From a virus (taxonomy: Duplodnaviria > Caudoviricetes): DNA of 61,017 nt. The stretch is from positions 1 to 61,017 of IMG/VR virus record IMGVR_UViG_3300047586_000114; one strand, 5' to 3'. The position numbers and the translations under genes are program-made. The notes under the pieces were generated by a model that worked only from the letters and a program-made list of their open reading frames with translations, made no database searches and was not told the origin of the DNA. Shown one piece after another: positions 50,504 through 52,185 of the stretch (position 1 is its first letter; the number at the start of each line of letters is the position of its first letter).

Positions 50504-51544
50504 ATGAATACTAATATATTATATGGAATTGCAACAGTAAGAGATAAACAAGTTAAATTACAATGCGGTACTAAATTTATAAGATTTGCAAAAAATGCTC
50601 CATATTTATGGACTGATAATAAAATTATTAAATATAAAGAGAAAACATTTTATCCTCTCTTTGATTCTGATTTAAGAAAAACTCAAATATTTATTTCATT
50701 TACTGAAAAAGATATAGTATTTGAAACAATGAAAATTATTGAAATAAAAAATTGTAAGATATTGAATAAGAAGCATATAAATAATATTAATGATCAAAAG
50801 TTTTATTTTGATAAATATATGAATCCTTTTCCTTATCTAAAACAAACAGATGAAGGTTCTGAAATAATTGGTGAAGATGAATATATATGTTTCAATAGAA
50901 TAAATGAAAGATCATCAGGATTTCCATTTAAAGAAGATTTTAATGTAGAAATAAAATGTGAATCAAATTTAAGTAAAGATGAAATCTGGTCAAAATTTTT
51001 AGATTATAGTAACATCAATTATAAAAATTCCATATTACAAATTTCTGAATTTTTTCCAGTATTTAGAAATTTTTATCTGAATAGAATCTTGTATAGTAGA
51101 TTTGCAGATAAGTATAAATTAGAAAAACCAAAACCTACTCCATCTGCATTTAATAATTTTGTTATGAATGAAGTAAATACAGAATTAGAAGTTATTGATT
51201 TAAATGAATTGGTTGATATTCAAATTATAGATAAAAATGGAGAAATAAATATCTTTAATAATTGTAAATTGTGGGATATTAAAAGAAATAATATCCTTAC
51301 ATATGAAATTGATGATATAAGAAATTTTAATTTCGTTACATATGATAAAATTTATTATTTGGTTCTTCCATTAACTGTATCTTATGAATGGAAACAAAAG
51401 AGATTAAAAGGTCATTATTACAGTTGTGAGGAGTATTATAAATATTTAATTTTAATTCAAGTAAATAAGCAGTCATTGGAAACGTTTAAAAGAAATAATA
51501 TAGTGGAGAAACTATCTGGGAGGGAGAGAATAAATAATATTTAA
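50504..51544 (+). CDS. hypothetical protein
   Basis: 346-aa ORF, 1 nt after the ATPase stop. Confidence 0.65.
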   Translation: MNTNILYGIATVRDKQVKLQCGTKFIRFAKNAPYLWTDNKIIKYKEKTFYPLFDSDLRKTQIFISFTEKDIVFETMKIIEIKNCKILNKKHINNINDQKFYFDKYMNPFPYLKQTDEGSEIIGEDEYICFNRINERSSGFPFKEDFNVEIKCESNLSKDEIWSKFLDYSNINYKNSILQISEFFPVFRNFYLNRILYSRFADKYKLEKPKPTPSAFNNFVMNEVNTELEVIDLNELVDIQIIDKNGEINIFNNCKLWDIKRNNILTYEIDDIRNFNFVTYDKIYYLVLPLTVSYEWKQKRLKGHYYSCEEYYKYLILIQVNKQSLETFKRNNIVEKLSGRERINNI

Positions 51545-51587
51545 AGGAAATAATTTTCATGCCCGGATGGCGTAATGGCAGCCGCAT

Positions 51588-51800
51588 CAAATTTTTTCTG
51601 GTGCGAGTATATGGTAACATATACAAAGATCGAGGCTAAATCGGTGAATCTCCTAACAGGTAAAGCTGAGGACAACGCCGTGCTAAGTGGGAAAATAAAT
51701 ATTCCCTAAATGTGTAGAGAAGCATATACCTCGCTCCTAACAGGTAAAGCTGAGGATGAAGACGTGCTCCATGCCATATAGTAATATATGGAAATAAGTG
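51588..51800 (+). ncRNA. group I intron 1 (213 nt, IC3-like) at tRNA position 27/28
   Basis: U before 5' splice site, terminal G; P1 CGCAU|CA with UGGUGCG (U-G at splice site); P10 UCUG/CAGA; AAAUCGGUGAA and AACGCCGUGCUAAG core; P3 CGAGG/CCUCG; P7 with UGCUCC. Confidence 0.88.
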
Positions 51801-51807
51801 CAGACTT

Positions 51808-52024
51808 AATTAATTTGAGTGCTCTAAGGGAAACCTTAGAAGTAGAAGTTCCCAAACTCGGTGAACGGTTTTAAATCCCAACGCCGAGCCAACCTCAATT
51901 AAAATTGAGAAGTGTGTAGAGAGCAGACGGGAACTACCTAAGTATCAAGAAATGATATATGGTAATGGCGTGCTCCAGACCACGAACATCTTTCTTAGAT
52001 GGCGTTGAAAAACGAAGTGGTAAG
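51808..52024 (+). ncRNA. group I intron 2 (217 nt, IC3-like) at tRNA position 34/35
   Basis: P1 ACUU/GAGU; P2 with GAAA loop and CCUAAG...UAUGG 11-nt receptor in P8; P3 AGUUCCC/GGGAACU; P7 GAGAGCA/UGCUCC; terminal G. Confidence 0.92.
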
Positions 52025-52110
52025 AAAATCTGATATCCGCAAGGGTGTGGGGGTTCAAGTCCCCCTCCGGGCATATCCTTTTTATCTAACAGGAAATTTT
52101 TTATTTTAAT

Positions 52111-52185
52111 GGGACAGTAATTCAACGGTCAGAATAGGTGACTCATAATCACTCAACGATGTTTCGACTACATCCTGTCCCACCA
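52111..52185 (+). tRNA. tRNA with CAU anticodon, probably Ile2 (lysidine) rather than Met
   Basis: GGGACAG/CTGTCCC acceptor + ACCA; anticodon arm GGTGA CTCATAA TCACT resembles the Ile2 type; no fMet hallmarks. Confidence 0.85.

Follow-up and report, generated by a model that had tools for sequence, protein, structure and literature searches.

Group I introns of bacterial tRNA genes have been catalogued by Williams (2020; bioRxiv 10.1101/2020.01.27.920355), who described 5292 such introns at 21 tRNA/site types, all of them within the anticodon loop. Since the underlying method (ARAGORN combined with a model) considered eight loop sites only and one intron per gene, it was blind to arrangements such as the one described below. 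The original prediction on the DNA studied here, which was made from its letters alone, had held that bacterial tRNA group I introns are single and lie in the anticodon loop, in agreement with this catalogue, whose method presupposes both properties. With respect to phages, the available portion of Hausner et al. (2014; PMC3984707) placed all introns then known in protein genes; the Azoarcus tRNA-Ile(CAU) intron is also named there. As worded in that portion, the statement on phage introns no longer holds, since dozens of viral contigs carry tRNA-Leu genes split by an intron. Here, we describe a tRNA-Leu(UAA) gene interrupted by two group I introns, one of which lies in the anticodon stem. The gene is located on the plus strand at positions 51561 to 52073 of IMG/VR virus record IMGVR_UViG_3300047586_000114 (61,017 b; judged ∼20% complete), and this whole stretch is referred to as the window. 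Its arrangement is new among the tRNA genes examined and in the literature searched: no described tRNA with two group I introns, or with one in the anticodon stem, was found there, and Table 1, Fig. 3, and the supplement of Williams 2020 are the places that could bear on this point.

Exon 1 (51561 to 51587; 27 nt) comprises the 5' strand of the acceptor stem, the D arm, and tRNA nucleotides 26 and 27, and ends in U27. It is followed by intron 1 (51588 to 51800; 213 nt), by a micro-exon of only 7 nt (51801 to 51807; CAGACUU, or CAGACTT at the DNA level), by intron 2 (51808 to 52024; 217 nt), and by exon 3 (52025 to 52073; 49 nt). The micro-exon corresponds to tRNA nucleotides 28 to 34—i.e., four nucleotides of the anticodon stem, C32, U33, and the wobble base U34—whereas exon 3, beginning with A35, supplies the 3' strands of both the anticodon and the acceptor stem, the long variable arm and the T arm between them, and the discriminator A. 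Upon in silico splicing, the 27, 7, and 49 nt were joined into an 83-nt RNA, which ARAGORN called as tRNA-Leu(taa). This product showed the class II cloverleaf of a tRNA-Leu, in which the acceptor stem has 7 bp, the D stem 3 bp, and the anticodon stem 5 to 6 bp; CUUAAAA forms the anticodon loop, and the long variable arm, the T arm, and discriminator A are all present. If intron 1 alone was excised, ARAGORN placed an intron of 217 nt at position 35 of a tRNA-Leu. Retention of intron 1 resulted in a wrong call, and so did skipping of the micro-exon (51588 to 52024 cut as one unit), which left no proper tRNA. When aligned with 36 phage tRNA-Leu(UAA) sequences, the spliced product was ungapped at both junctions (best identity 72%, with L066; median 63%), which places intron 1 between nucleotides 27 and 28 and intron 2 between nucleotides 34 and 35. 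Although the boundaries can slide by up to 2 nt (intron 1) or by a few nucleotides (intron 2) without altering the product, only the boundaries given here provide both a U at position −1 and a terminal (omega) G at the intron end (U51587/G51800 and U51807/G52024). The coordinates and letters of exons and introns, the complete leucine cloverleaf after double excision, and the U and G bordering each insert had all been put forward in the original prediction and were recovered as such.

It had furthermore been suspected that this gene is overlooked by standard tRNA callers, and both programs used here indeed missed its unspliced form. On the raw window, the sole ARAGORN call was an intron-less tRNA-Met(CAU) situated 37 nt downstream (52111 to 52185), and the Rfam tRNA model at its gathering threshold likewise detected only this tRNA-Met. 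The latter encodes its own CCA end, unlike the split tRNA-Leu.

In a search of 751 nt, the Rfam group I model RF00028 matched both inserts over its full length (model positions 1 to 253), with 29.1 bits at 51798 to 52017 (intron 2) and 20.1 bits at 51578 to 51791 (intron 1); at the gathering score of 50 bits, neither insert was matched. Weak RF00028 scores are typical of bacterial tRNA introns: Rfam has no bacterial group I seed, and 18 to 20 bits were taken as the working score for such introns (Williams 2020). Two bona fide single-intron tRNA-Leu genes of huge phages (L001 and L002) gave no RF00028 match at an E value of ≤1. Therefore, 35 viral tRNA-Leu introns were used to construct an independent covariance model (R1), with nothing from the window included. 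Its source was a degenerate pattern over the exon-intron 2 junction, which retrieved at least 120 loci from IMG/VR; 50 of the 120 listed loci had the core motif within 300 nt, and the analysis was continued with these. They comprised 47 tRNA-Leu(taa) genes with a single intron at the classical site, one locus cut by a contig end, and two coding sequences that had no Rfam match. There were 36 distinct introns, and the 34 short ones were combined with that of the 735-kb phage LR756501 (L001) in alignment A1, in which compensatory changes occurred in 31 of the 48 predicted pairs, including helices P2, P3, P5, P6, P8, and P9.

On the 61,017-b window, R1 had exactly two matches, both of full length (model positions 1 to 219), at 51800 to 52032 (intron 2; 156.6 bits, E = 4.6e-40) and at 51580 to 51798 (intron 1; 28.0 bits, E = 5e-6). 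In minimum free energy (MFE) folds of both introns, P1, P2, P3, P4, P5, P6, P8, and P9 followed one another as in group I introns. Intron 1, intron 2, and the whole precursor had z-scores of −2.66, −4.68, and −7.32, respectively, and the fold of the precursor also closed the acceptor stem. Over 78 introns, the two strands of P7 covary (ACUA/UAGU, ACUU/AAGU, AGCA/UGCU, and ACCA/UGGC), and both introns of the window conform to this behavior. Model alignments, folds, and P7 strands together yielded the core P3-P4-P6-P7-P8 with its P3/P7 pseudoknot in both introns. The earlier claim that each insert contains P3, P4/P6, and P7 cores was thereby borne out, and the covariance-model match demanded there for each insert was obtained, with RF00028 remaining below its threshold.

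Intron 2 is a typical representative of the introns found at site 34/35 of tRNA-Leu. It was matched by R1 as well as by Rfam. Where at least 95% of 76 other introns agree (55 columns), it has the conserved letter in 54. Its guide (51814 to 51820; UUU/GAGU, AAUUUGAGU) is invariant in 35 of 35 family members, and its P2 is capped by a GAAA loop. The 5' strand of P7, GAGAGCA (51919 to 51925), has its partner UGCUCC at 51971 to 51976, as indicated by strand covariation over the 78 introns, and P8 (51936 to 51963) contains the internal loop CCUAAG...UAUGG. The P9 domain (51979 to 52021) consists of an ACCAC/GUGGU stem around two hairpins (51988 to 52000, and 52003 to 52014 with a GAAA loop); both this closing stem and the CAGAC segment after P7, which is present too, are invariant in the 35-member family. 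P7 itself (GAGCA/UGCUC) differs by two compensated pairs from the GACUA/UAGUC or GACUU/AAGUC of the 35 model sequences, but this variant is common in other introns and widespread in metagenome contigs (L258 to L376). Among the 147 matches listed for its pattern, 65 were intron-bearing tRNA-Leu(CAA) genes and 40 were intron-bearing tRNA-Leu(UAA) genes. Many of the CAA-anticodon cases appear to have C instead of U at position −1, like the "Leu.3Cg" type of Williams 2020. Single group I introns at the 34/35 site of tRNA-Leu(UAA) are also common in viral contigs (47 of the 50 filtered matches listed, with 36 distinct introns). This viral set comprises L014 to L130 from IMG/VR and two "huge phage" records of 735 kb (L001; LR756501, 189725 to 191093) and 595 kb (L002; LR756511, 408575 to 409919), the second of which has an HNH-type open reading frame (ORF) in its intron.

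Intron 1 shows the same order of elements, with a shortened P9 domain. Its guide (51597 to 51605; UCUG/GUGCG) forms P1 in the MFE fold and is followed by P2 (51607 to 51624; 7 bp, GUAA loop) and by the 5' strand of P3, CGAGG (51631 to 51635), which pairs with CCUCG at 51729 to 51733. P4 (CGGUG/CGCCG; 51642 to 51680) encloses the P5 hairpin (51650 to 51672), and P6 (GGGAA/UUCCC; 51689 to 51706) was seen in the fold. The 5' strand of P7, GAGAAGCA (51717 to 51724), has its partner UGCUCC at 51765 to 51770 and carries an extra A at 51721 or 51720. All conserved letters of the J3/4-P4-P6-J6/7-P7-P3-J8/7 core are retained, whereas the intron as a whole keeps 41 of the 55 conserved columns. The 23-nt P8 hairpin (51734 to 51756) is identical to the P5 hairpin and belongs to a 35-nt direct repeat inside the intron (51650 to 51684 versus 51734 to 51768; 89% identity, with the first 23 nt identical). 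Past P7, the intron is shortened to CAUG, a single 7-bp hairpin with a GUAA loop (P9; 51774 to 51791), and a 9-nt tail up to the terminal G. The loops of P2 and P9 are thus both GUAA, whereas the relatives of intron 1 have GAAA and GUGA. The matched loops, together with the identical P5 and P8 hairpins, look like a maintained tertiary design and might constitute a matched pair of loop-receptor contacts. No homing endonuclease is encoded, both introns of ∼215 nt being devoid of an ORF.

The guide of intron 1, UCUGGUGCG (51597 to 51605), is the ungapped complement of the ligated exons CGCAU-CAGA. Within P1, CGCAU at the end of exon 1 pairs with GUGCG, with the U51587-G51601 wobble exactly at the splice site, and within P10, CAGA of the micro-exon pairs with UCUG. 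By a rough estimate made without a dedicated tool, the chance of finding such a matching 9-mer within the first ∼30 nt of an intron is ∼1e-4. In intron 2, ACUU of the micro-exon pairs with GAGU (P1; U51807-G51817 wobble), and UUU pairs with AAA of exon 3 (P10). The P1 and P10 partners of intron 1 and the P1 partner of intron 2, each with a U-G pair at the splice site, are thus present in the sequence as had been proposed. In the mechanism that we envisage, a functional tRNA-Leu(UAA) gene of an AT-rich tailed jumbo phage is split by two independent ORF-less group I introns, both of the compact bacterial tRNA-intron type, with intron 1 at U27/C28 and intron 2 at U34/A35. The precursor would need two guanosine-initiated self-splicing reactions, and the guide of each intron would pair with the end of the upstream exon (P1, with U-G at the cut) and with the start of the downstream exon (P10).

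A tRNA-Leu(UAA) would be of use to this phage, since TTA accounts for 641 of the 1019 leucine codons in 17 long ORFs of the window. Because the exons and intron 2 are intact, the core of intron 1 is complete, its guide is matched to the site, and TTA codons are heavily used, we consider it probable that both introns splice to give a working tRNA-Leu(UAA). Splicing of both introns in vivo, the mature tRNA, and any splicing order are inferred in the present work.

Several observations weigh against this interpretation, most of which concern intron 1. Its R1 score was the lowest of 78 matches, next to the low RF00028 score mentioned above, and 11 of its 14 misses among the conserved columns fall into the deleted P9 region. 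Two elements that are invariant in the 35-member family, AGAC after P7 and the ACCAC/GUGGU stem, are missing from it, and none of the other introns among the 78 aligned has an additional A within the P7 5' strand. Furthermore, it interrupts the 5' strand of the anticodon stem after the first pair, and the classical intron from Anabaena tRNA-Leu is said to need exon pairing in just this stem, a result attributed to Zaug et al. in 1993. The identity of P4 (CGGUG/CGCCG) and of the P7 3' strand (UGCUCC) in both introns invites cross-pairing between them. Finally, the locus is a single instance: queries of IMG/VR with the flanking ORFs and the tail sheath revealed no alleles with zero, one, or two introns, and thus no relatives that would show the arrangement to be maintained.

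The truncated P9 region and the unique extra A in P7, which had escaped the original prediction, therefore leave a real chance that intron 1 is impaired. If so, the gene would be dead or dying, intron 1 would splice no longer or would never have done so efficiently, no mature tRNA-Leu would be formed, and the locus would be a recent pseudogene. We regard this main alternative as unlikely, though deserving of serious attention, since the exons are flawless, they and intron 2 are free of signs of decay, and intron 1 retains every core helix as well as a 9-nt guide fitted to this very site. The stems P2, P5, P8, and P9 of intron 1 are all intact, and the GUAA loops match. Short P9 domains occur in small active tRNA introns as well, e.g., in that of Azoarcus. 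With regard to the extra A, we assume by analogy with solved group I structures that the G-C pair beside the bulged A of the guanosine site remains, and the additional nucleotide would bulge two pairs further in.

Even if both introns are active, as we favor, their two reactions are unlikely to be fully independent, since the micro-exon is claimed three times: nucleotides 28 to 31 by intron 1, nucleotides 31 to 34 by intron 2, and nucleotides 28 to 31 again in the final anticodon stem, where CAGA pairs with UCUG of exon 3 (nucleotides 39 to 42). A31 is common to P10 of intron 1 and P1 of intron 2 and cannot serve both guides together, and UCUG of the intron 1 guide is identical to the tetranucleotide that exon 3 contributes to the anticodon stem. 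Coupling of the two reactions, or a preferred order of splicing, is therefore plausible. The fold of the whole precursor showed some pairing across the two introns.

Stricter versions of such coupling appear doubtful to various degrees. In one of them, which seems rather improbable, splicing would be an obligatorily ordered relay: the UCUG guide, mimicking the 3' strand of the stem, would hold the micro-exon, which would then pass to the guide of intron 2 and then to exon 3. If true, a group I intron would be tolerated in a tRNA stem only because the neighboring intron keeps this stem unformed, and the double lock would set the time at which the main leucine tRNA of the phage becomes available in the course of infection. 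In another, interdependent or gated splicing, with one ribozyme acting first or with helices shared, would time or throttle the supply of tRNA-Leu(UAA) in infection. The double demand on A31, the competition of the intron 1 guide and exon 3 for CAGA, and the identical P4 and P7 3' strands with cross-intron pairing in the precursor fold would fit such a scheme. However, P10 is commonly dispensable for group I splicing, and introns without an ORF are by default regarded as selfish insertions that bring no benefit. We give gated splicing a very small chance.

An alignment of 78 introns to R1 was used to study the relationship of intron 1. With only 28.0 bits and 41 of 55 columns, it is a distant relative, and therefore not a member, of the tRNA-Leu(UAA) R1 subfamily, from which it also departs by its insertion site (between nucleotides 27 and 28 instead of 34/35). 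Its closest relatives (L371, L236, L230, L252, L259, and L245; 61 to 66% identity over aligned columns) are mostly from viral contigs of 130 to 214 kb and sit in the anticodon loop of either a long-arm tRNA with a CUA anticodon (after U33) or a tRNA-Leu(UAA). Letters common to intron 1 and these relatives are GGCUAAA in J3/4, CGCCGUGCUAA in P4'-J6, and AAAUGUGUAGAGA..GCAUA in J6/7-P7. Its nearest relatives belong to the jumbo-phage "GUGCUAA / AUGUGUAGAGAGCAUA" subfamily (L230, L243, L245, L259, L371, L236, and L252, with L377 being bacterial), which has the same J3/4, P4', J6/7, and P7 letters. In contrast to intron 1, these introns occupy anticodon-loop sites (33/34 in the CUA tRNA, 34/35 in tRNA-Leu), keep an ACUAC/GUAGU P9 stem, and lack the additional A of P7. 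By identity to intron 1, intron 2 comes only 27th among 77 introns, and in the reverse comparison intron 1 is 74th of 77. On the basis of these ranks, we rejected the idea that intron 1 arose from intron 2 by a recent tandem duplication. The two introns belong to different subfamilies, which the original prediction had not noted. Exon 1 ends in CAU, like the anticodon of the neighboring tRNA-Met(CAU), a likeness which is a possible hint to the origin of intron 1.

The CUA-anticodon tRNAs of L230 (2950 to 3183), L243, L245 (12900 to 13136), and L259 (1543 to 1780) have long variable arms and are labeled "tRNA-Pyl" by ARAGORN; each is split by a group I intron after U33. They are located on viral contigs of 170 to 214 kb, one of which is rated 100% complete. 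They look like amber suppressor tRNAs and hint at TAG recoding in those phages. In L230 and L243 (∼350 nt upstream of the CUA tRNA) and in L259, ARAGORN additionally reported inserts of 59 nt in a "tRNA-SeC(tca)" and of 57 nt in a "tRNA-Ile(tat)"; these anticodon-loop inserts are far below the size of group I introns.

The window itself (24 to 33% GC) encodes a large terminase subunit, a tail sheath, a baseplate wedge, and tail-fiber-like proteins and therefore represents part of the genome of a large tailed phage. Among sequencing runs, the nearest one containing it is a peat metagenome. Since the DNA is of metagenomic origin (depth ∼6×), the assembler might have joined two alleles or two intron-bearing tRNA genes, all the more as the 3' exon is also present in further tRNA-Leu genes of the sample. 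However, when run X1 was assembled separately, a single contig of 1201 nt spanned 50866 to 52066 with 0 differences and 0 gaps; it includes exon 1, both introns, the micro-exon between them, and 42 nt of exon 3 without any internal joint or loose end. Contigs break only at 52037 to 52073—i.e., in the stretch whose letters are shared by the other tRNA-Leu genes of the sample. As X1 may be the window's own sample, the match excludes an assembler-specific chimera and is not independent biological support, a reservation that belongs with those listed above. Moreover, the micro-exon and the two guides all match a single tRNA exactly. An assembly artifact, which had been named as a possible refutation of the predicted gene, is thus hardly credible, and the DNA-level architecture of the locus is secure. 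In a freshwater sediment run (X2), 151-nt pieces matched 50911 to 51061 and 51269 to 51419 with ∼99% and ∼91% identity. Both pieces fall into the ORF upstream of the tRNA, nothing of the tRNA itself being present in X2, and they show that relatives of the phage exist outside the peat sample.

Surveys for similar loci were limited to listed matches and biased by the patterns used, so that the absence of a second intron from all 164 other intron-bearing tRNA genes among the matches listed (47 plus 117) is weak evidence. The 117 genes stem from a pattern for the P7 variant, which hit 28 viral and at least 119 metagenome loci; among the matches listed, 117 were single-intron tRNAs according to ARAGORN, and 30 received no ARAGORN call. 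Fourteen of these 30 had R1 matches and proved to be contig-end truncations, single-intron tRNAs, two neighboring tRNAs (L238), or multi-intron protein genes (L242 and L274), whereas the other 16 had no R1 match at an E value of ≤0.01. Nowhere among the 30 uncalled loci were two R1 matches less than 96 nt apart. In L238 (1190 to 1990), two adjacent phage tRNA genes have one group I intron each, one tRNA having the loop CUUAUAA (UAU) and the other being a tRNA-Leu. L274 (500 to 1540) and L242 (1890 to 4361) contain three to four R1-type introns in a row on the same strand, in apparent protein-coding genes with short exons between them, and L254 has three intron matches within 1.8 kb.

Four jumbo-phage records with intron-1-like introns had one, one, one, and three well-separated R1 matches. 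Neither of the two ORFs flanking the locus had a relative in IMG/VR. The tail-sheath query returned three distant fragments (36 to 41% identity) without an R1 match, a result of little weight given their completeness of 1 to 14%. Two exact-match probes were rejected: a 25-mer from the T arm and acceptor hit 11 loci, all of them unrelated intron-less tRNA-Leu genes or attachment-site fragments, and a 14-mer from J6/7-P7 of intron 1 hit 96 loci, none with three simple flanking motifs, and was taken as chance.

While the existing catalogues hold single loop introns, the locus described here adds a second intron in the anticodon stem, and its tRNA would need two ribozyme reactions. Because such genes are invisible to standard tRNA callers, the tRNA sets of phages will be under-counted. 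With ∼510 nt, the locus is a compact natural test case for the side-by-side folding of two similar ribozymes, for a 7-nt exon that serves two guides, and for the need of the classical tRNA-Leu intron for an intact anticodon stem.

Among known systems, the classical 34/35 intron of tRNA-Leu(UAA) is closest to intron 2, which has the same U34/A35 site, the same guide, and the same P1-to-P9 layout. It differs in that its host gene is a phage tRNA with a second intron 7 nt upstream, which leaves it a 5' exon of only 7 nt until intron 1 is removed. The layout of intron 1 resembles that of the Azoarcus tRNA-Ile(CAU) intron, which we take to be a small, compact, ORF-less IC3 intron with L2/L9 tetraloop-receptor contacts and a short P9. 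The latter is presumably single and lies in the anticodon loop, and the likeness is one of layout. A group I intron outside the anticodon loop of a tRNA-like fold is also known from the T loop of transfer-messenger RNA (Williams 2020), but in another molecule, at another site, and as a single intron. Archaeal multi-intron tRNAs, as far as they are treated in the available text of PMC4090602, likewise have more than one intron per gene and sites outside the anticodon loop. These are, however, bulge-helix-bulge introns removed by a protein endonuclease and joined by a ligase, and not ribozymes. In placozoan mitochondrial cox1, the accessible part of PMC5436844 describes a micro-exon of 1 bp between two group IB introns, i.e., an exon far shorter than the normal guide pairing, and RNA-seq showed that both introns were spliced. 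That gene differs from ours in being protein coding and organellar, in its intron subgroup, and in a micro-exon without a structural role. Two group I introns in tandem are also found in the side-by-side twintrons of fungal mitochondria (in the excerpt available from PMC8393795). Those introns abut or nest, whereas in the phage locus the two introns are separated by 7 exon nucleotides that the product requires as tRNA nucleotides 28 to 34.

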